A DNA stretch of 34,960 bases, from the UHGV virus genome UHGV-0140617, one strand, 5' to 3'. Under the pieces are notes generated by a model that worked only from the letters and a program-made list of their open reading frames with translations, was not told where the DNA came from and ran no database searches. The first letter of the stretch is position 1. Each line of letters starts with the position of its first letter. The translations under genes were made by a program, and so were the position numbers. This document shows positions 19,127-30,205 of this stretch, one piece after another. The DNA is from a virus.

Positions 19127-19499
19127 CTGAACCTCCCCGGCGCGTTATCAGCGCCACCAGCGAGCCGACATCCTGATTATTCAGGAACGTCAGGATTTTG
19201 ACAGCTAAAGCAGAAACGATTACGGCACCGATAGCGTCCAGAGGCTTATCACTGTAACCAGTCCAGTCAGCCAGCTTTGAACCCACCAGCCCAGAGCAGA
19301 TTATCCCTGCGATGTAAGACACGACAAAATACGCCAGCCGACGTGCCGCGCTAAGGTCCGAAGCCGTTGCAATGTAAAATACAGCCCCGGCAAATGCGCC
19401 AAACACCACGCCATAATCGGTTCCGGAAACAAATCCATAGACACTGGCTCCCGTCAGGACACCACCAGCCAGCCCAGTACCGGAAATCGGATCGGACAT
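19113..19499 (-). CDS. Holin
   Basis: 128 aa, Gly/Ala-rich TM helices; first gene of the lysis cassette; SD AGAGGGGG. Confidence 0.65.
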   Translation of the reverse strand: MSDPISGTGLAGGVLTGASVYGFVSGTDYGVVFGAFAGAVFYIATASDLSAARRLAYFVVSYIAGIICSGLVGSKLADWTGYSDKPLDAIGAVIVSALAVKILTFLNNQDVGSLVALITRRGGSGGTK

Positions 19500-19546
19500 T
19501 AAGCCCCCTCTTAATTGCTGTGAGTCCTCTCAGAAATGAGGGGAAT

Positions 19547-19571
19547 AAAAAAACCCGTTCGAATGAACGGG
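19547..19571 (-). terminator. Strong intrinsic terminator immediately upstream of the holin (minus strand)
   Basis: cccgtt(19554-19559)/aacggg(19566-19571) 6-bp stem followed on the minus strand by UUUUUUU (plus A7 19547-19553). Confidence 0.7.
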
Positions 19572-20290
19572 CCAGAAAAGGAGAATTTTGCATTACTGAA
19601 GCGTTAACGCGATGCCGGGTGCCTCCCGGTGGGCCTTTGGCTGACAAACCATGACCCGTGAGCACTTTGCATGTCACTCCCTGACATTGTTTACTGTCAG
19701 TTTCACCCCTCCGCTTAGGGGGATTCATCACAACAACTTCAAACGAGAGCTTTTACTGAATGCTCTTTAACATTAGGACCGATAAAGAAAACCTGCAAAC
19801 AAATAGCCCAATGATTTCAAAAGAGTCAGGCTTCACGGGCTGGATTTATCAACAAAGCACGCAGTGAGTGATACCCGTGAGCCTGAAATGAAAAAGGCCA
19901 CGCAAAAGCGCGGCCCTAAGAAGATATATATATTTTGTTAATTCAGCGGAACATCTGGCATGGAGCGATCCAGTGAAGCGTTAATCAACGCCTTAATCGC
20001 GTTACACACCTGATAAAATCCGCCAGGCTGAGATAATAGCCATTATACGATGACCACAGATATGTTGCTCCTGGTAAGATCAGTATATATGCTTGAGTCA
20101 ACATAGTATGTGGAACATAAGTTGCTGTAACTGGACGATACATCGCGCAGATGAGATTAATCACGAATCAAATTTGACATTTGAATCATGACGGTTAAAT
20201 CCGCCTCCCGGGCGTGGCCTGCGGATGTGCGAAGTACTGTACAGAGAGATCGCGCGCCCCAGGTGCAACTAATTAATCATGGGAGAGTTT

Positions 20291-20386
20291 ATGAAAAATC
20301 AACATAGCCTTCATGACTGGAGCACTGGTCTTAAAGCCTCGACATCAACATTTATGTTTATCATGATTTTGGTTTATGTTGTGTGA
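20291..20386 (+). CDS. Candidate small ORF (31 aa, hydrophobic C-terminus)
   Basis: ATG 20291 preceded by GGGAGAG; MKNQHSLHDWSTGLKASTSTFMFIMILVYVV; below the ORF-track size cut-off. Confidence 0.25.
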   Translation: MKNQHSLHDWSTGLKASTSTFMFIMILVYVV

Positions 20387-20636
20387 TGTTGATGACACCA
20401 TCAATGCCCAGCAAGCGCGGTTACTCATAAGAGATTTCACACCACTAACCCCGCTGGGTGTCAGACTGAGATTTTGAGTCTGGTTCGCTACCGGGGGTTA
20501 GGATCTCGTTTCATCAACCCAGAAGACTGATGCTATATCTGATTGAACCAGTTGGTGTTAGATGGCACTTGTTGGACTTGGACCGACACCCAAAATAATC
20601 AATCTGGTTCGTGCCCTGTAAGATAAGAGACTAATA

Positions 20637-20825
20637 TTACTTTCTCAGCACTCCTTCATTCGGGCTGCTTGAAGTATAAGGTGTATAGTTATCAGGTGTA
20701 ATCATTGAAGATTTACAAAAAATACACTTTGCACCAAAGGGATTTTTCTCAGTCACATCAAAATGAGATGTTCTGTACTGTGACCCATGACAACAAGGGC
20801 ACTTAAAATAAATATGAGCAGTCAT
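20637..20825 (-). CDS. Small zinc-ribbon-like protein
   Basis: 62 aa with CPCC-H ... C-IF-C cysteine pairs; in the Q-to-lysis accessory region. Confidence 0.5.
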   Translation of the reverse strand: MTAHIYFKCPCCHGSQYRTSHFDVTEKNPFGAKCIFCKSSMITPDNYTPYTSSSPNEGVLRK

Positions 20826-21247
20826 GATATTAGCCTTTATATGCTACAACATTCACTACCGCAGTGATAACCAGAAGATATATTTTAACTAATAGTTCTT
20901 TTGGTTTTAGCATCAGATTGCAATTCACTTTAAAAGCAATAAAAATGAACATTTCTTATCTGCTTACATAGGGAATCTAAAATAATATAATTTCTTTATA
21001 TTATAACATCAGCGATTTTTGGGATGTTGTTAACTTTTACGAATGCACTTAAGCGTGCAAAAAAACTACAGAGGTAAACAGACAAATGACATTTATAAAA
21101 TAATCATTTCAACTGTTCTATCTAGTGATTAGACTCAGACATCTGTTCAGATCGGTTTGAGCAGATGTCGAGTTTCTGAAAAACCAATATATCTACTCAG
21201 GCTTTCACCGTCTTCGCTATCGTATATTGGCCTCAATCAGAAAAGTA

Positions 21248-21460
21248 TCAGGCAGCTACAACGTTTTCGGCTGACGGCCCTTTTGCACCAGCAGTGATGC
21301 TGAACTCAACTTTTTGGCCTTCATTCAGCGTTTTAAAACCACCACTCTGAATGGCAGAGAAGTGTACAAACACATCTTTACTACCGTTATCAGGGGTAAT
21401 AAAACCAAAACCTTTAGATTCATTAAACCATTTTACTAAACCAGTCATTTTATTAGACAC
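21248..21460 (-). CDS. Cold-shock protein, CspA family (prophage-borne paralog)
   Basis: 70 aa [38 protein letters not shown]... with RNP1/RNP2 motifs; ORF-track start is GTG (21458-21460), alternative ATG at 21446-21448. Confidence 0.9.
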
Positions 21461-21996
21461 AGGTATTTCCTTAAATTCTATGTAGCCTTACGGCGAAAAG
21501 GTTTTCGCACACAATCTAATTAGTAACGATAAGAAGGCTCAAAAGAAAGGATTATCTGTGGATAACGCTTGAGATGAGAACTGCTTTACTAAACCGCTTT
21601 AATGGGTCTGTGTACCTAACCAACCACTCATTAATCACACAACCCACAAACAATAGCAAGTTATTTTTTCATTAAATTGTTCGGAACATCTTAGAAATGG
21701 ATGCCGTGACAGCATAATCAGTGATTTTTCCCCTCGATAACATATGAGTGATCGCCTCTGTACGAGCAGAAACAGAATACATCAGTTTTATCAATCACCT
21801 ATAAAGAACATTCAACCACTCTGAAAAAATCCAGTAATGAGTTTTTTGTTCTATGCTTTCGTAGTCCATGGAATTGGTGGTAACAAAGGTAACCATTTCA
21901 TCCAACTCAAAAACAATATTTACAAAACTATGCTACTTTTATTTCATATATGTGTATTATTAGGTAAAGGAAATTAGAACTTTCAAAGGAGAAAAA

Positions 21997-22209
21997 ATGC
22001 AACGACAGAAAATGATATCGTCGAAAATAAAATTTGTTGGTTACTACCCATTAGAAAAAATCCTCGAGATAGGATTCGTTAACTCTTCAACCTTTCAGTA
22101 CGTTGGTGTCCCAGAAAGCATCTATAATTCTTTTCTAACAGTACAATCTAAAGGCCGTTTCTTTGATGGTGTTATTAAAGGTAAATTCTTGTGTCGTAAA
22201 ACCGGATGA
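21997..22209 (+). CDS. KTSC-domain-like small protein
   Basis: 70 aa; strong SD AAAGGAG; pattern VGY...L.I.F.N...Y.Y.GVP.S.Y......SKG.FF...IK recalled as KTSC-like; plus strand, opposite to late transcription. Confidence 0.5.
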   Translation: MQRQKMISSKIKFVGYYPLEKILEIGFVNSSTFQYVGVPESIYNSFLTVQSKGRFFDGVIKGKFLCRKTG

Positions 22210-22383
22210 TTCAAGAAAACTACTCTTACATATAGCCTGAAAGTCGTTTTTATTGCTTCCGGTTGTTGGTGTCCATTTGCGCAGGATGTTGATATCCCAC
22301 AGAACACTATTCCCATCAACTTCATATCCTTCATTAAAATGAATTTTTGCGATACGGGAACGCATACAATTTTCGAGTTCTTG

Positions 22384-22409
22384 GAAAACAAAACCCCGCC
22401 GAGGCAGGG
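22384..22409 (-). terminator. Terminator-like hairpin about 45-60 nt downstream of the putative late promoter
   Basis: Minus-sense CCCUGCC..GGCGGGG stem followed by UUUUGUUUUCC. Confidence 0.4.
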
Positions 22410-22453
22410 TTTTAATGATTAATATCGTACAGGCGCTATATCCCATAATCAAA

Positions 22454-22483
22454 AGCATACAGGACGGTTTTATGCAAAGTCAA
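22454..22483 (-). promoter_or_regulatory. Putative late promoter (pR'-like) just downstream of Q
   Basis: Minus-sense TTGACT (plus 22478-22483), 18-nt spacer, TATGCT (plus 22454-22459), about 45 nt after the Q stop. Confidence 0.4.
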
Positions 22484-22524
22484 CACCAACGTGCAAAAAA
22501 GAGTCGCCATTTGCTCCGATCGCA

Positions 22525-23340
22525 TCAATAAGTTGTTGCTTTCTCAAATTCTGATGATGCCTGACGCTCTCCCTTGTGCAGTGCATCAACCAACATTTCA
22601 TAGAATGGCTTCCAGTTACGAGACCATGAGGACTGATGGAGATCCGGCAGACGTTTAAGGATAGCCCGGTGAACGGTCGCAGATGACACTCTGGAATACC
22701 CCTCGCCGCTGCAACGCTCACACGTTTTGAAAACCGGTGCGCCGCGGTCTTTTGTCGCGATGCGGTCCAGTACCTCGCCCTTTCCACCACAACGGCAGCG
22801 GGCGCTGATTGTTCCCTTGCCTTCGCAACTATCACAGACGGCCGGTACAACCTCTGTTACCTCAGTCCAGTGCTCCCAGTCAGACGGACGAACGGCACGA
22901 GAGCGGTTAGCCCAATATGGTGCTTTACCCCATGGGTACGAAACCTTACGGGTGACCTGTTCGCGGGTTGTCCGTCCGGTACCATTGCAGCTGTGACACG
23001 TCACGCTGGTAGCCGCCGAACGAGAGTATTCAGCAAAGGCAAATTGCGCCAGCATCAGCATGCACCATCCCAACTCACCACCGGCTGCTTTGCGCACGTT
23101 CTTTGGTGCTGTCTCCATTGCGTGGCGTGCCAGCGCCTGAACCGCAAGTTGCTCATCGCTTTTGCTGATCCCGGTTTTACCAAAGAAAGCGGACAGACCA
23201 AAACGCGCGCGGCTGCTGGTCGTACCGATGGCTACCATAACATCGGTTCCGGTGAGGCGATCCGGAGAGGTGCCTTTCACGCTGTCGCTGATGTGCATCC
23301 CCTGAGGGCTGAAATGTTTGAGTGATGATTCCAACTTCAT
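22525..23340 (-). CDS. Q: Late-gene antiterminator Q-like protein
   Basis: 271 aa from ATG 23338-23340 (MKLESSLKHF...) with SD GAGGA; CxxC zinc-binding pairs (CHSCNGTG, CDSCEGKG, CERCSGEG); position between replication genes and the lysis region. The longer track ORF is an N-terminal over-extension. Confidence 0.75.
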   Translation of the reverse strand: MKLESSLKHFSPQGMHISDSVKGTSPDRLTGTDVMVAIGTTSSRARFGLSAFFGKTGISKSDEQLAVQALARHAMETAPKNVRKAAGGELGWCMLMLAQFAFAEYSRSAATSVTCHSCNGTGRTTREQVTRKVSYPWGKAPYWANRSRAVRPSDWEHWTEVTEVVPAVCDSCEGKGTISARCRCGGKGEVLDRIATKDRGAPVFKTCERCSGEGYSRVSSATVHRAILKRLPDLHQSSWSRNWKPFYEMLVDALHKGERQASSEFEKATTY

Positions 23341-23350
23341 GATAATTTCC

Positions 23351-24709
23351 TCAGGCTTTTGCATACCGACGCGGTTGTGATTTTTGCTGCGAGGCTGATT
23401 TTGATTTCGCTTCTTCCTGGTCAATCGGCAGAAAATGCCCGTTGTAGAAACGGCGGTACACGGTTCCAAGAACGCCGTTACGCTGTTTGGTGATGTTAAT
23501 TTCCGCGATCCCTTTCGCCGGCGATTCGGGGTTATACACTTCATCGCGATAGAGCATCATGATGATGTCAGCATCCGCCTCAATTTCGCCGGAGTTCTTC
23601 AGGTCAGAGTTCATGGGACGTTTATTCGGTCGGGATTCCACGCCTCTGGAAAGCTGGCTCAGGGCCAGAACGGGAGTGCGGTTTGTTTTGGCAAGTCGCT
23701 TTAATCCCTTCGACAGTTCACCCACCGCGAGGTCATAGCGTGCCGTGCTCTGGATCTTAATGAGTAACAGATAATCGATAACCACCAGCGCGGTTTCTGG
23801 ATGAGAAATCTGATGACTGGTTGCCGTTTGCTCGATCTGCTCAAGCGTCAGATCTGTGGCATCGACCATCCAGATATTGCGCCCGGTAAGATGCCCGATA
23901 CCTGTAGATAACCTTGCCCAGTCTTCATCTTCAAACTTCGCGGCTGCTTTGAGCCTGGACACTGACATACCACCAGCAGCAGATACCATTCGCTCGCCAA
24001 TCTGGATGTTGGCCATCTCCATGCTGAAAAACAGTACGCCATGCCCCTGCTCTGATACCTTATCGATAATGTCCAGTGCCAGCTCGGTTTTCCCCATCGA
24101 CGGACGAGCCGCGATGAAGACCAGATCTGTCGGTTCAATGCCGCCGGTTTTAGCGTCCAGTTCTTCAATGCCGGTCATCAGCGGTTTGGCCTCTTCCAGC
24201 CCCTGATTTCTTGCATCTACCCGGTCAATTACTGCAGGTAAGATTTCATCAATATGCACAGGTTGAACGGTATCAGGAGTGAGTGAAATTGAAGCCATGG
24301 CCTCCTGCGCGGCTTTCAACGCTTCGACTGCGTTTTCACCATTGGCAGCATTGCGAATGCCAGCCAACGCTGTCTCGATTACAGCCTCGGCGTCACGAAC
24401 GGCAGCATTACGTTCCAGTGTGGAAACGTAATACGTCAGAGCTGATTTAGCCCATGCGATACGGCTTGACTCGAGTATCGTTGCGCTGTGTTCTGGCATG
24501 ATCTCACACAGCAACAGCGGATCTATCACTCCGGTCCCCCGAGCCTGACGACAAATGCCGGAATATATTTCACGGTACTGACGGACAGAGAATGCGCTCG
24601 CCGGCATACGGGAAAGAATGCCCAGAACCTCAGGATCGGTATTGCGCAGAAAAATCGCGCCAATTACCGCACCTTCCAGATCATTATTTTTCCATACCGG
24701 AGTCATCAT
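23351..24709 (-). CDS. Replicative DNA helicase (DnaB family)
   Basis: 452 aa; Walker A ARPSMGKT, and RecA-like core motifs. Confidence 0.9.
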   Translation of the reverse strand: MMTPVWKNNDLEGAVIGAIFLRNTDPEVLGILSRMPASAFSVRQYREIYSGICRQARGTGVIDPLLLCEIMPEHSATILESSRIAWAKSALTYYVSTLERNAAVRDAEAVIETALAGIRNAANGENAVEALKAAQEAMASISLTPDTVQPVHIDEILPAVIDRVDARNQGLEEAKPLMTGIEELDAKTGGIEPTDLVFIAARPSMGKTELALDIIDKVSEQGHGVLFFSMEMANIQIGERMVSAAGGMSVSRLKAAAKFEDEDWARLSTGIGHLTGRNIWMVDATDLTLEQIEQTATSHQISHPETALVVIDYLLLIKIQSTARYDLAVGELSKGLKRLAKTNRTPVLALSQLSRGVESRPNKRPMNSDLKNSGEIEADADIIMMLYRDEVYNPESPAKGIAEINITKQRNGVLGTVYRRFYNGHFLPIDQEEAKSKSASQQKSQPRRYAKA

Positions 24710-28010: not shown

Positions 28011-28670
28011 ATGAAAACAGAATGGTATGAACTGGCTAAAGCCAGAATGTCTGAAGTGGGGGTTACGCAGGCCCAACTTTCAGAGGAATTGGGTGTTACA
28101 CAAGGTGCTTTGAGCCACTGGCTTAACGGCAGGAGATCGGCTTCGCTTGCTGAAATAGGTTCGATTTTTCGAATCCTTGGCATTGTTGGTGCAACCCTCA
28201 ACATAGATGGTTCATTCACCATCGGACCAGAGCAATTCTCGGCACCTCCTAAACCTCATTATGAATATCCTGTTTTCTCTCACGTTCAGGCAGGTATGTT
28301 TTCTCCAGAGTTCAGAACCTTTACAGAACGCGATGCAGAAGGCTGGGTCAGTACAACCAAAAAAGCCAGTGAACATGCATTCTGGCTTGAGGTTGATGGA
28401 CACTCCATGACAGCCCCAACCGGCTCAAGACCAAGCTTCCCAGCCGGAATGCTCATTCTTGTTGACCCTGAAGAACCAGTTGATCCTGGAGATTTCTGTA
28501 TCGCCAGACTTGGCGGGGATGAATTCACTTTTAAGAAATTGATTAAAGATAGTGGACAGGTCTTTCTTCAGCCGTTAAACCCACAGTTTCCAATGATACC
28601 CTGCAACGAGCATTGCAGAGTCGTTGGCAAGGTGGTCGCATCACAATGGCCTGAAGAGACATTCGGATAA
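28011..28670 (+). CDS. cI: CI-like repressor (HTH plus S24 LexA-like peptidase domain)
   Basis: 219 aa; N-terminal HTH ([23 protein letters not shown]), Ala-Gly cleavage site (VQAGMF), catalytic Ser (VDGHSMT) and Lys (FKKL); no SD upstream, consistent with a leaderless transcript. Confidence 0.85.
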
Positions 28671-28692: not shown

Positions 28693-28716
28693 CCCGGCTT
28701 ATGCCGGGATTTTTTT
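28693..28716 (+). terminator. Intrinsic terminator after cI
   Basis: cccggc(28693-28698) ttat gccggg(28703-28708) followed by T-run (atttttttgt). Confidence 0.8.
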
Positions 28717-28798
28717 GTCTGAATATCAATACCACTAATTAAATACACTTTGAAATCAAACGCTTTCAATTAATAATCAAATTTTATTTCATTTTGTA

Positions 28799-28827
28799 TA
28801 GACATAGTCAATTACGTTTTGTAATAT
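28799..28827 (+). promoter_or_regulatory. Putative early-left promoter with overlapping operator
   Basis: TAGACA (28799-28804)-N17-TAATAT (28822-28827); palindrome ATTAC-N5-GTAAT at 28811-28825 containing TGTAATAT, the same 8-mer as in the cI-cro operator region. Confidence 0.45.
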
Positions 28828-28858
28828 CACTTCATCGGCAAATTACGGAGCCAATGAG

Positions 28859-29152
28859 ATGAACATAACCTCCCAACCAAACCCAGCAAGCCAGGAATTT
28901 GATATTCACGCCAAGCTTAGATCAGCTAATTCGCACTGGCCTTATTGCTATGCTGTCCAGCATTTCGAGAAAGAATTTAATTACCAATTTAATACAAGTT
29001 TTGTTGACGAAATGGAGTTCGCTGTTTACGAACGTATCGATAATTATTTCGTTTTGGTTGATTTCTTTAAGTCATACGATGAAGCATGTGATGATGCTAA
29101 AAAAATCATTGATGACCACCCTGATCTTAAAAAAATGTTCCCTGCTATTTAA
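28859..29152 (+). CDS. Hypothetical acidic protein (first gene of early-left operon)
   Basis: 97 aa; SD ACGGAG 9 nt upstream; no recognisable motif. Confidence 0.5.
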   Translation: MNITSQPNPASQEFDIHAKLRSANSHWPYCYAVQHFEKEFNYQFNTSFVDEMEFAVYERIDNYFVLVDFFKSYDEACDDAKKIIDDHPDLKKMFPAI

Positions 29153-29223
29153 TTAAACCATTAATTAACAAAAAACATCATAAATAACACCTTAACCGGT
29201 GGGGAACAACTCACCCTGAGGAA

Positions 29224-29520
29224 ATGCAGATGAATATTACCGTCAAAAGTGAAGTCTTAAATAACAAGAGCCATTCAGTTAATCAGGATGACGACATTCT
29301 TTATATAAACAAGGCACACAAAACAGCAGAGTGCGCCAATAAATACGCGCATGAGCTACGTACAGAGTTTTTCCAGTTACTGATGCCAGCAATCACGCGT
29401 ACAGATGTGAAGGTAGCAGGAAGATTCACCTCGTTACTTAATGAGCTTTGCTTCATGACCCAAATGACCATGGAGAATTCATCCAAGGGGGGGGGCAATA
29501 ATGACGTTTCTGAAAGATAA
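29224..29520 (+). CDS. Hypothetical protein, apparently truncated at a G9 tract
   Basis: 98 aa as sequenced; with 8 G instead of 9 (29487-29495) the frame continues to TAA 29612-29614, overlapping the next ATG (TAATG). Confidence 0.45.
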   Translation: MQMNITVKSEVLNNKSHSVNQDDDILYINKAHKTAECANKYAHELRTEFFQLLMPAITRTDVKVAGRFTSLLNELCFMTQMTMENSSKGGGNNDVSER

Positions 29521-29613
29521 AGCAGCACACAATACTGCAAAACTTTTTGCCTCTTATGGAAATAGTTATCTGCATATTGCAAACCTTTTTCTGCGCAAGG
29601 CTTACGGGCGGTA

Positions 29614-29976
29614 ATGACAATGAAAAACAATACCATTGAAATTTATCGCCGCCGCGTTGCTATTGCGACATTAAACCGAATGAAGCGCAAGACAGGAGGT
29701 TATTGCCTCTCCGTAAATATGCCCGATAACAATATCCAGGTTATCGAGATTAACGAAGAATCAATGATGAAACTTTTGCTGCGCTTCGAAAAACAGGCTC
29801 GGACTGAATTCAACACAGAAGCGGAAACATTTCTTCGCCAGACGTATATGAAAAGCGTCGATATCAATGAACACACCGAATATCTGACCGAAACCGGAAA
29901 GATGATTGTTGACGAGATTTTTGCGGAATTAATTAAACACGCGAAAGAGAAATACGTATGTGGAGGAATTAACTGA
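29614..29976 (+). CDS. Hypothetical protein
   Basis: 120 aa; stop overlaps next ATG (TGATG). Confidence 0.5.
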   Translation: MTMKNNTIEIYRRRVAIATLNRMKRKTGGYCLSVNMPDNNIQVIEINEESMMKLLLRFEKQARTEFNTEAETFLRQTYMKSVDINEHTEYLTETGKMIVDEIFAELIKHAKEKYVCGGIN

Positions 29977-30205
29977 TGGCCTCACAACAAACAATTATTC
30001 ACGGAATGCAGACCCCCCCCCAGTCCTCAACGTGGATCTGCATGTGCTTCCGGATTTCACCGGACGCGTGGTTCTTTACATCGAAAAAGGGCGTGTGACA
30101 TGCGACCGCCGTCTGCTCGACGACGAACATATTTGCGCACTGGACACTTTTATCGAAATGGCTCGCGAAATGGAGCTACGTCTTGAGGAAATATCGAATG
30201 ACTGA
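29976..30205 (+). pseudogene. Hypothetical gene interrupted by frameshift at C9 tract
   Basis: ATG 29976 with SD GGAGG reads MASQQTIIHGMQTPP then shifts frame at C9 (30013-30021); the downstream frame (...VLNVDLHV...EEISND) ends ATGACTGA-coupled to the next gene; 10 C would restore one ORF of about 76 aa. Confidence 0.5.

Follow-up and report, generated by a model that had tools for sequence, protein, structure and literature searches.

The "moron" concept covers the cargo of HK97/HK022-type phages, and the slot between Q and S of Stx phages carries the tRNA arrangement ileZ-argN-argO. The closest known layout to the one described here is that of Qin, a cryptic prophage of Escherichia coli K-12, in which quuQ is followed by ynfS and cspF on the opposite strand, by cspB, by ynfU (again on the opposite strand), and by essQ; Qin also carries the gene order cspI-ynfQ-ynfR-ynfN-gnsB. 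Viable phages that share this layout are Tritos, mEp460, and 2H10. The leader mechanism of E. coli csp genes has been reviewed (PMC12360218), and cold induction around cspI-ynfQ-ynfR has been described for YnfR (PMC6001520). The small RNA STnc100 is reported to lie 75 nt downstream from stx2 and close to Q genes of the PF03589 type (PMC12370729; bioRxiv 10.64898/2026.05.13.724894).

The stretch of DNA that we analyzed (referred to as the window; 34,960 nucleotides of virus genome UHGV-0140617) belongs to a lambdoid prophage of Citrobacter whose Q is of the Qin type. The distance from the Q stop to the holin start corresponds exactly to positions 19500-22524, with Q ending at 22525 and the holin beginning at 19499, both on the minus strand. 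The GC content of this interval is 0.393; it is 0.554 in Q, 0.528 in the lysis genes, and 0.499 over the window as a whole. It is the lowest-GC 3-kb stretch in the window: 0.8% of the 3025-bp windows are equally low, and every one of them overlaps the interval. The interval also holds 8 terminator-like sites (late strand only), while shuffled sequences have 3.3 ± 1.7. The first-pass annotation had described an AT-rich accessory island here. Its limits and base composition are confirmed, and the presence or absence of its contents differs between relatives, which have alternative cargo in the same slot; the idea of a single 3-kb island gives way to a mosaic of units with different distributions. 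Read from its sequence, the interval is a mosaic cargo ("moron") slot in the leader of the late operon and not one insertion. We estimate a probability of roughly 75% that this cargo is expressed autonomously while the lysis genes are insulated from it.

The units of the mosaic are a KTSC-csp-ymcF block (22445-20026), a remnant of a tRNA-Gly gene, a segment ending in terminator T1, a long hairpin (HP2), and a 280-bp indel that contains STnc100. Among 23 full-length Q relatives in GTDB, csp is present in the slot of 1 and KTSC in that of none, and the alternative cargo of relatives comprises HicB-like, DUF3800, TerB, ParA-like, HNH, and Rha genes. The same block, at 97-100% identity, is found beside different replication and lysis modules, and Q itself is mosaic. 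Identical cargo proteins, which are already named in public annotation, occur on hundreds of contigs from several genera. GC content is 0.36-0.39 in the slot versus 0.53-0.55 in the flanking phage genes. Three genes of the interval are under purifying selection: the KTSC gene on the opposite strand, a CspG/CspI-like csp gene, and a gene for a YmcF-family zinc-ribbon protein. Such selection also acts on the csp promoter and leader and is absent from the spacers. Known RNA elements of the interval are a tR' terminator that works in both directions and follows a pR'-like promoter, the complete cspA thermoregulator leader, the gene of the small RNA STnc100, a tRNA-Gly that has been cut short, and a junction element made of a terminator and a hairpin. 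The structured noncoding stretches noticed in the first-pass annotation are confirmed in the form of the thermoregulator, STnc100, tR', T1, and the long hairpin.

The Q gene (22525-23340, minus strand) encodes a 271-aa antiterminator of the QuuQ/PF03589 type (PF03589, 181 bits; phrog_127, 333 bits). It is 34% identical to K-12 QuuQ over its full length, and, together with the csp genes in the Qin slot, this identity supports the likeness to cryptic E. coli prophages that had been suggested for the locus. The listed 339-aa Q open reading frame from 23544 is over-extended upstream, with homology beginning at 23341 and Q being annotated as 271 aa in 16 related loci. A promoter scan placed a pR'-like late promoter (TTGACT-18-TATGCT) at 22454-22483 on the minus strand, with a predicted start near 22450-22447; a -10-like TATAGC (22440-22435) may act as a sigma-dependent pause element. 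The pR' region covaries with the Q allele, being 72-82% identical versus 100% immediately downstream. It is followed by the intrinsic terminator tR' (22381-22414), AAAACCCUGCC-UCGG-CGGGGUUUU with a U tract, which folds on both strands. Flanked by an A tract and, across the stem, by a U tract, tR' can therefore terminate the convergent KTSC transcript as well. We considered and rejected the possibility that tR' is a KTSC terminator that arrived with the cargo, because a relative without cargo (L069) has a homologous tR' behind the same pR'-like promoter and initial transcribed sequence. A tR' homologue is also annotated in phage HK225.

The KTSC gene (21997-22209) lies on the plus strand, against the late operon. 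Its 70-aa product matches positions 2-58 of the 58 positions of PF13619 (65.5 bits; cutoff 25) and PDB entry 4rgi (E = 2.6e−22), and its strong ribosome-binding site, already pointed out in the first-pass annotation, is AAGGAG at 21986-21991, 5 nt before the ATG. A candidate promoter (TTTACA-17-TTTCAT, 21919-21947, plus strand) comes from a consensus reading; a generic promoter scan called neither this promoter nor that of ymcF, and both candidates rest on the reading of hexamers. Compared to relative L011, the KTSC gene has 4 synonymous and 0 nonsynonymous changes, and compared to the more distant L114, third codon positions hold 23 of the 29 differences. The intergenic DNA between KTSC and csp is highly conserved in the 85% group of relatives, and a hidden element in it was considered. 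We rejected this element and attribute the conservation to recency, because the same DNA is only 60% identical in L114.

On the minus strand, a complete cspA-type mRNA (21176-21624) consists of a 5' leader or thermosensor with a cold box (21461-21624), a csp coding sequence of the CSD/CspA family with a GTG start and 70 codons (21248-21460), and a 3' terminator-like hairpin predicted by folding (21174-21242). It matches the full covariance model RF01766 (positions 1-428) with 200.9 bits (gathering score, 78), which is higher than the scores of K-12 cspG and cspB (159) and cspI (113). The upstream promoter (21625-21673) has an AT-rich UP element (21673-21661), a -35 hexamer TTGCTA (21659-21654), and a TG-extended -10 region (21639-21630) that is one base longer than its E. 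coli counterpart. All of these control elements, cold box and leader included, align with those of K-12 cspG, cspB, and cspI. The promoter is 83-96% conserved and the leader, the most conserved noncoding part, 96%, whereas the adjacent, neutral intergenic DNA is only 60% identical. The earlier proposal that some cargo has its own promoters thus agrees, for csp and at the level of DNA sequence, with our results. Since the control signals of E. coli cspB and cspG (a promoter with its UP element and a leader with its cold box) are all retained, the reading with the most support is that csp would be induced by cold in the lysogen, autonomously.

The encoded protein matches PF00313 with 112.5 bits, contains both RNP1 (KGFGFI) and RNP2 (VFVHF), and is 79% identical to CspG, 74-79% to CspA/B/G/I, and 45-46% to CspF/H. 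In two comparisons with relatives, csp shows 8 and 13 synonymous and 0 nonsynonymous substitutions. NCBIfam assigns Csp to the CspA/CspE "RNA chaperone/antiterminator" subfamilies, an assignment that would also suit cargo serving the phage, with csp and ymcF expressed essentially within the Q-dependent late transcript and Csp aiding late transcription or translation, for example, at low temperature. Both genes share the orientation of the late operon directly behind pR'-tR', and a cold-inducible-type csp is co-oriented with the lysis genes in all layouts seen (the window, L021, L114, Qin cspB, and Tritos). However, a gene expressed by read-through has no need of the host-type promoter, UP element, and thermosensing leader that csp retains, which argues against a phage-serving role. 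In addition, KTSC runs opposite to the late operon, and cspB and cspI of Qin are grouped with the cold-shock genes even though Qin is defective (PMC12360218). We regard service to the phage as unlikely and favor autonomous expression.

A role in anti-phage defense or counter-defense, either as a cold-shock-domain effector like that of some retrons or through KTSC as on a HerA-type defense ATPase, seems to us improbable. Csp matches the NCBIfam model of the retron Se72 effector (54.7 bits, below the cutoff of 82) and PADLOC CSD_V (56.8 bits), both weakly; a KTSC domain is located at the C terminus of a HerA helicase (PDB 8wiv; E = 9e−7, also a weak match), and KTSC genes adjoin those of HerA-like ATPases (PMC9503650). 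Csp is, however, far closer to CspA/CspG (134 bits, 79% identity) and is preceded by a csp leader, the slot contains no reverse transcriptase, retron noncoding RNA, or HerA gene, and PADLOC returned no match for KTSC or YmcF. With an effector below threshold and no partner genes or RNAs, we rejected membership of the locus in retron or HerA-type defense systems.

The third conserved gene (20637-20825, minus strand) encodes a 62-aa small zinc-ribbon protein of the YmcF/YnfQ family (PF23641, 99.7 bits; cutoff 27), 78% identical to K-12 YmcF and 70% to YnfQ, with a complete four-cysteine pattern (CPCC...CxxC, here CPCC...CIFC). Together with the Pfam matches for Csp and KTSC, this result bears out the protein identities given in the first-pass annotation. 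The NCBI name of the product is "cold shock small protein YmcF." Changes in ymcF are 9 synonymous and 6 nonsynonymous, the latter in the C-terminal tail. The csp-ymcF synteny recurs in five independent loci, and the two genes are co-oriented. Their gap measures 422 nt in the window versus 10-13 nt in K-12, Tritos, and L029, and it accommodates the terminator-like hairpin and a candidate ymcF promoter (TG-n-TATAAT, an extended -10 with no good -35; 21000-21008, minus strand), from which the leader would be ~168 nt long. The TATAAT block is kept in the 85% group, in which the surrounding spacer is 71-81% identical.

Downstream of ymcF, a noncoding spacer of ~580 nt (20059-20636, minus strand) is 67-83% identical, with indels, in the 85% group. 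Its open reading frames are broken in relatives, no conserved open reading frame was found in it, and DNA searches with 20020-20640 gave no match in E. coli or phages. Two possibly decayed tRNA-like stretches (20631-20563 and 20557-20485, minus strand) are called by ARAGORN only at the 80% threshold, at which 31% of shuffled sequences give a hit as well. The spacer adjoins the 5' 34 nt of a tRNA-Gly(UCC) gene (20025-20058, minus strand), cut at the mosaic breakpoint at 20025; a complete tRNA-Gly aligns at the same position in L003, L004, L007, L009, and L011, and tRNA calling found none in the whole window. A perfect TATAAT at 20048-20043, considered as the promoter of a small RNA ending at T1, was rejected, being the D-loop of this truncated tRNA-Gly.

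The candidate small-peptide genes of the first-pass annotation did not survive comparison with relatives that are 79-85% identical, in which each is missing its start, has acquired stops, or is shifted in frame. Those at 22135-22458/22365(−), 21795-21905(−), 21672-21794(−), 20830-20952(−), 20279-20386(+), and 19985-20164(−) are broken in L011, and none has a match in Pfam, NCBIfam, or PHROG. The region 22135-22365 is 60% identical, with gaps, in L114. The open reading frame at 20279-20386(+) resembles K-12 YnfS at E = 4e−4 in a tiny BLAST database, and it was rejected as YnfS, having no match to the Pfam YnfS family and being disrupted in relatives.

Low GC content, a stretch of ~580 nt in which no feature is conserved, one truncated and some possibly decayed tRNAs, and nonconserved small open reading frames would be expected of functionless hitchhiking DNA, such as a decaying chromosomal csp fragment caught by a phage. 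The substitution patterns of csp and KTSC are a strong argument against it, and the conserved csp leader and the spread of identical proteins over hundreds of contigs and several genera speak against it, too. We consider it very improbable that the cargo is hitchhiking DNA rather than selected genes.

The intrinsic terminator T1 (19894-19917, minus strand) ends the segment 20024-19918; its stem of 10 bp, 7 of them GC pairs, precedes UUUUUCAUUU. The sequence of its stem varies among phages while the pairing is preserved, and a T1-like hairpin is present in 93 of the 105 unique instances of the junction element. The long hairpin HP2 (19826-19886, minus strand; z = −4.8), formed by the arms CAGGCUCACGGG and CCCGUGAAGCCUG around a conserved ~35-nt loop, marks the end of the cargo slot. 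IMG/VR has at least 120 contigs with HP2, which lies upstream of no fewer than six unrelated holin families at a median distance of 56 nt and has no match in Rfam. HP2 alleles show compensatory changes, and native arm pairs exceed all 200 arm swaps in pairing; for the junction-element helix, the proposed pairs were counted directly, the RNAalifold consensus of the alignment being poor. Across relatives, Q and the junction element are between 173 and 3267 nt apart. T1 plus HP2 is unlikely to be PasA/PasC, because, among 5426 complete E. coli genomes, only 82 carry the element and PasA is far commoner. T1 plus HP2 might conceivably be a functional RNA or an insulator of lambdoid late leaders and not just a recombination joint.

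The STnc100 gene (19542-19759, minus strand) matches the full length of RF02076 (positions 1-206; 76.8 bits; gathering score, 47), and a terminator scan found its own terminator at 19573-19552. It sits in the 280-bp segment 19825-19546, which is missing from otherwise nearly identical prophages: L006 and L016 lack it, yet they are 100% identical on both sides. The unit of HP2 followed by STnc100 also occurs in L062 and in phage Chris1, and in a variant without T1, a strong terminator is still found upstream of the holin. The first lysis gene is this holin (PF16931; 19113-19499, minus strand), behind which lie another holin-like gene and the gene of a GH19 endolysin. We infer that the lysis genes are shielded by the terminators that precede the holin. 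They might also leak: the cold-shock cassette could provide a temperature input to the prophage if, in the cold, transcription past the csp terminator, T1, and the STnc100 terminator altered the expression of STnc100 or the lysis genes without Q. Such a leak is conceivable because csp and the lysis genes point in the same direction and the family of Csp is reported to relax intrinsic terminators. We nevertheless give it little credence; the interpretation of T1 plus HP2 as a functional RNA or insulator is the more likely of the two, and the less striking.

We propose that the slot with autonomous cargo and insulated lysis genes works as follows. Transcription from pR' would halt at tR' after ~60 nt, so the late promoter would presumably contribute nothing past tR' in the lysogen. 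Behind tR' lie three apparently independent units, namely, KTSC, convergent into the bidirectional hairpin, csp, and ymcF. In the lysogen, csp would fire from its own UP-element promoter, and at 37°C, its leader would hold expression low, the mRNA being unstable or closed and subject to attenuation by Rho, in the manner described for cspA/B/G. Upon a temperature downshift, the leader would refold, Csp would be made, and the host would gain an extra RNA chaperone. ymcF could be coexpressed by polymerase that passes the csp terminator, which is weak, or could be transcribed from an extended -10 promoter of its own, and KTSC and STnc100 would be driven by their own signals. T1 and the STnc100 terminator would stop cargo transcription ahead of the lysis genes. 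Upon induction, Q-modified polymerase would pass every terminator, and the cargo would therefore also be part of the late transcript. The block was probably built by recombination at conserved joints and probably moves as one piece between prophages of Citrobacter, Salmonella, and, in some cases, E. coli.

The locus extends the theme of csp genes in prophages from E. coli Qin to active-looking Citrobacter and Salmonella prophages, in the form of a compact, strongly conserved KTSC-csp-ymcF block, and offers a clean natural case for asking if phage-borne cold-shock genes help the lysogen. It also yields a map of cargo units stacked behind tR' and, as we read it, insulated from the lysis genes. 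In practice, what is gained is annotation, since "hypothetical" open reading frames give way to three genes, to five RNA elements, and to the remnant of a tRNA. The most novel by-product, which may interest specialists, is the widespread, unannotated, conserved terminator-plus-hairpin element before many unrelated holin genes.

Overall, the interval is a real yet ordinary case of a well-known phage cargo slot. It shares with Qin-type layouts the Q family, a csp with an RF01766 leader placed between Q and the holin in late-gene orientation, a small opposite-strand gene directly behind tR', and a YmcF/YnfQ gene tied to csp. Unlike in those layouts, the opposite-strand gene is KTSC instead of cspF/ynfS, the slot between Q and the holin contains ymcF as well as csp instead of ymcF being behind the lysis genes, these two genes are 422 nt instead of 10-13 nt apart, and gnsB, ynfN, and ynfU are absent; DNA similarity to Qin-type layouts is confined to the csp (~76%) and ymcF (~79%) genes. 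The closest protein relatives are encoded by the E. coli chromosomal locus cspH/cspG-ymcF-ymcE-gnsA (CspG, 79%; YmcF, 78%). The csp promoter and leader of the cspG locus are homologous to those found here, but that locus is chromosomal, has ymcF 10 nt after cspG and cspH as a divergent partner, and lacks the Q, KTSC, and small RNA context. Phage HK225 has the order Q, tR', opposite-strand gene, HP2, and holin. The Q-S slot of Stx and other lambdoid phages (stx, tRNAs, STnc100/Pas small RNAs, and nanS-p) occupies the same position behind pR'-tR' and holds a similar mix of autonomous genes, tRNAs, and small RNAs, although its cargo is a toxin, whereas the cargo described here is related to stress.

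On the minus strand, which carries the phage genes in this part of the window, a gene for the late-gene antiterminator Q (PF03589, 271 aa; 22525-23340) is preceded on its high-coordinate side by a DnaB-type helicase gene (23351-24709) and followed by a holin gene (PF16931; 19113-19499), a second holin-like gene and a GH19 endolysin gene. An ORF listed as 22525-23544 is an over-extended Q. Because Q is called with 271 aa in 16 related loci and homology starts at 23341, we place Q at 22525-23340, and 19500-22524 is therefore the exact span from the Q stop to the holin start, just as the first-pass annotation had delimited it. The AT richness attributed to this interval is also real: the interval has a GC content of 0.393, falling to 0.36 within its core (20500-22445), versus 0.554 in Q and 0.528 in the lysis genes, and equally low GC occurs in just 0.8% of same-sized windows, every one of which overlaps the interval.

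Strong family matches bear out the three genes that had been read from the sequence: a cold-shock-domain protein gene, csp (21248-21460, minus strand; 112.5 bits), a YmcF-like zinc-ribbon protein gene (20637-20825, minus strand; 99.7 bits) and, on the opposite strand, a KTSC-domain protein gene (21997-22209, plus strand; 65.5 bits). These genes were compared with relatives of the block taken from public assemblies, which form two groups (95-100% and 85%), and with L114, a 79% copy of the block's left half from IMG/VR. Differences in csp number 8 from the 85% group and 13 from L114, and all are synonymous or in third positions. The KTSC gene has four synonymous and no non-synonymous changes against the 85% group, and third positions account for 23 of its 29 changes against L114. 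The ymcF gene has nine synonymous and six non-synonymous changes, with the non-synonymous ones located in the C-terminal tail. The remaining ORFs of 20 to 107 aa in the interval have lost their start or carry stops or frameshifts in relatives, and no family match was found for them; because of these two observations, the small peptide ORFs that had been proposed as candidates are not supported. Public gene calls of several related genomes include a 107-aa ORF (22135-22458, minus strand) that spans the terminator behind Q (tR') and overlaps the KTSC gene. The comparative data indicate that this ORF is no gene, and the region of this 76/107-aa ORF is only 60% identical to L114, with gaps.

The csp gene comes with a full set of cold-shock control signals. 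The Rfam cspA thermoregulator model represents the cspA mRNA in its entirety, and over its full length it aligns to 21624-21176 with 200.9 bits (gathering score, 78), higher than the scores obtained in the same way for K-12 cspG and cspB (159) and cspI (113). An AT-rich UP element, a TTGCT -35 and a TG-extended -10 region align with the K-12 cspG, cspB and cspI promoters, and the leader, cold box included, likewise aligns with its K-12 counterparts. Identity to L114 is 96% in the leader and 83% in the promoter versus 60% in the adjoining intergenic DNA, a difference that gives direct evidence that the csp control region is under constraint. Protein identity is 79% with CspG, 77% with CspI, 75% with CspB and 74% with CspA, versus only 45-46% with CspF/H. 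In Escherichia coli, csp leaders sense temperature by refolding and, at 37°C, also undergo Rho-dependent attenuation (PMC12360218). By homology, we infer that the window's csp would be an autonomous, cold-inducible unit.

The YmcF-like protein shares 78% identity with K-12 YmcF and 70% with YnfQ, and NCBI names the exact protein “cold shock small protein YmcF.” In K-12, ymcF lies 10 nt downstream of cspG and ynfQ lies 10 nt downstream of cspI; the csp-ymcF pairing is also found in phage Tritos, Citrobacter youngae (L029) and L114/L152. YnfR, a neighboring small protein of the cspI operon, is cold induced (PMC6001520). The gap between csp and ymcF in the window is 422 nt. A terminator-like hairpin with a U run stands behind csp, and a TG-n-TATAAT motif (21008-21000) is kept inside a spacer that is otherwise 71-81% identical. 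Transcription of ymcF may occur by read-through, from this candidate motif, or both.

Directly behind Q, a promoter-like site (TTGACT-18-TATGCT; 22483-22454, minus strand) is followed, about 35 nt past its predicted start, by an 11-bp GC-rich hairpin (22414-22381) that folds on both strands, with an A tract on one flank and a U tract on the other. Because the cargo-free relative L069 has the same promoter, the same initial transcribed sequence and a homologous terminator, and because an equivalent terminator is annotated in phage HK225, we assign the two elements as the predicted late promoter and terminator (pR'-tR') of this Q family. The KTSC gene reaches the hairpin from the opposite side. 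The same convergent layout is seen in HK225, where a small opposite-strand gene lies directly behind tR', and in Qin, where cspF-ynfS does. The KTSC protein matches PDB 4rgi (“uncharacterized protein”; E = 2.6e-22), and the family has solved structures; the domain also occurs at the end of a HerA-type helicase (8wiv) and has been described as DNA binding (PMC9503650). PADLOC gave no match for KTSC.

At the other end, two minus-strand structures, the strong intrinsic terminator T1 (19917-19894) and the long hairpin HP2 (19886-19826), form a junction element (T1+HP2; 19820-19917) that is also present in L049, L050 and L052-L171. An exact-pattern scan of IMG/VR found it in at least 120 contigs. 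Among the matches listed, an ORF begins downstream of the element in 114 of 119 instances (median distance, 56 nt), these ORFs represent at least six mutually unrelated families of holins, and in 93 of 105 unique copies HP2 is closely preceded by a terminator-like hairpin, whose stem sequence varies between phages while its pairing is preserved. HP2 alleles show compensatory changes, and native arms pair better than arm-swap controls (12.23 versus 11.88 ± 0.12 pairs; better than 200 of 200), which gives the predicted helix modest covariation support. Among the matches listed, the element lies 173 to 3,267 nt away from a PF03589-type Q, and L170 has the minimal layout, Q-pR'-tR'-T1-HP2-holin. 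Two copies flank inserted units in phage Chris1 (STnc100 and uspF) and in L114 (IsrI). The element also occurs in HK225, mEp237, Gifsy-2 and Klebsiella phages and, unannotated, in 82 complete E. coli genomes; it has no match in Rfam. The 85% group lacks T1, and there the STnc100 terminator stands ahead of the holin; each of the two layouts scanned therefore has a strong terminator before the holin. We read T1+HP2 as the distal boundary of the cargo slot, in which T1 would insulate the lysis genes and the conserved sequence would serve as a joint for homologous exchange.

The DNA around this boundary is mosaic. The block is common to all relatives down to 20025, a breakpoint that falls within a tRNA gene: the window retains only the first 34 nt (5') of a tRNA-Gly(UCC) (20058-20025, minus strand), which is complete at the same place in L003 (6769-6843), L004 (6769-6843), L007, L009 and L011 (4004-4078). 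The L003 tRNA, otherwise near-identical, keeps a Gly-type body but has a single-base change to the anticodon UUC and is called as tRNA-Glu. The stretch of 580 nt from ymcF to the remnant holds no conserved ORF and has no match in phages or E. coli. At a permissive 80% threshold, ARAGORN reports two tandem tRNA-like stretches directly after ymcF (20485-20631, minus strand; Ile-GAU and Arg-UCU); because 31% of shuffles also give a match, they are only a hint of decayed tRNA genes. Past the breakpoint, a 107-nt segment (20024-19918) leads to T1, and HP2 is followed by a 280-bp segment (19825-19546) with a full-length STnc100 small RNA (sRNA) gene (76.8 bits; gathering score, 47) and its own terminator. 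L006 and L016 lack this segment; their identity is 100% over the cargo side (23600-19826) and about 94% over the holin side, which makes this a clean presence/absence polymorphism affecting an sRNA gene. STnc100 is already known as a prophage sRNA of exactly this neighborhood: published positions are 75 nt downstream from stx2 and close to PF03589-type Q genes (PMC12370729; bioRxiv 10.64898/2026.05.13.724894). The slot holds an IsrI-family sRNA (RF01392, about 70 bits) in L114 (7315-7411) and in Chris1 (L050; 4334-4430), where it overlaps an ORF annotated “hypothetical protein.”

The Q-KTSC-csp-ymcF block adjoins differing replication modules (DnaB/IstB-like, DUF927 primase or Toprim) and differing lysis cassettes (four holin types; lysozyme, CHAP or GH19). 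Between related prophages, Q is itself mosaic (66-100% identity per 100 nt), versus 97-100% identity across 22445-20026; the promoter region tracks the Q allele, and from about 22445 onward the same prophages are identical. Q is thus more diverged than the cargo behind it, with the switch just past the predicted late transcription start. Identical proteins are recorded in the Citrobacter freundii complex, C. braakii, Salmonella enterica and a few E. coli; the best matches of the window are Citrobacter records, and its Q protein is named C. freundii. Of 23 full-length relatives of Q from GTDB representative genomes, a single one (Atlantibacter, L021) carries a csp in the slot, and KTSC is absent from the slot in all; in the rest, the slot is filled by HicB-like, DUF3800, TerB-like, ParA-like, HNH or Rha genes. 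A second low-GC patch (0.38; 28700-30000), downstream of a cI/LexA-like repressor gene (28011-28670, plus strand), contains three plus-strand ORFs of 97 to 120 aa and is probably another cargo position.

Because the arrangement has a described counterpart in Qin and Tritos and public annotation pipelines have already named the window proteins, we class the interval not as a new system but as a cargo (moron) slot with a cold-shock cassette of known type, which would presumably benefit the host. By sequence comparison, the described arrangement that comes nearest is found in E. coli Qin and in viable phages related to it, among them Tritos. Like the window, they have the same Q family, a csp of the cold-inducible type with a thermoregulator leader between Q and holin, a small opposite-strand gene behind tR' and a csp-ymcF pair, and the parallel drawn earlier with cryptic E. 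coli prophages is therefore upheld. They differ in having cspF/ynfS where the window has KTSC, whereas the window has ymcF inside the Q-holin slot and a larger csp-ymcF distance, and DNA similarity between the two is limited to csp and ymcF.
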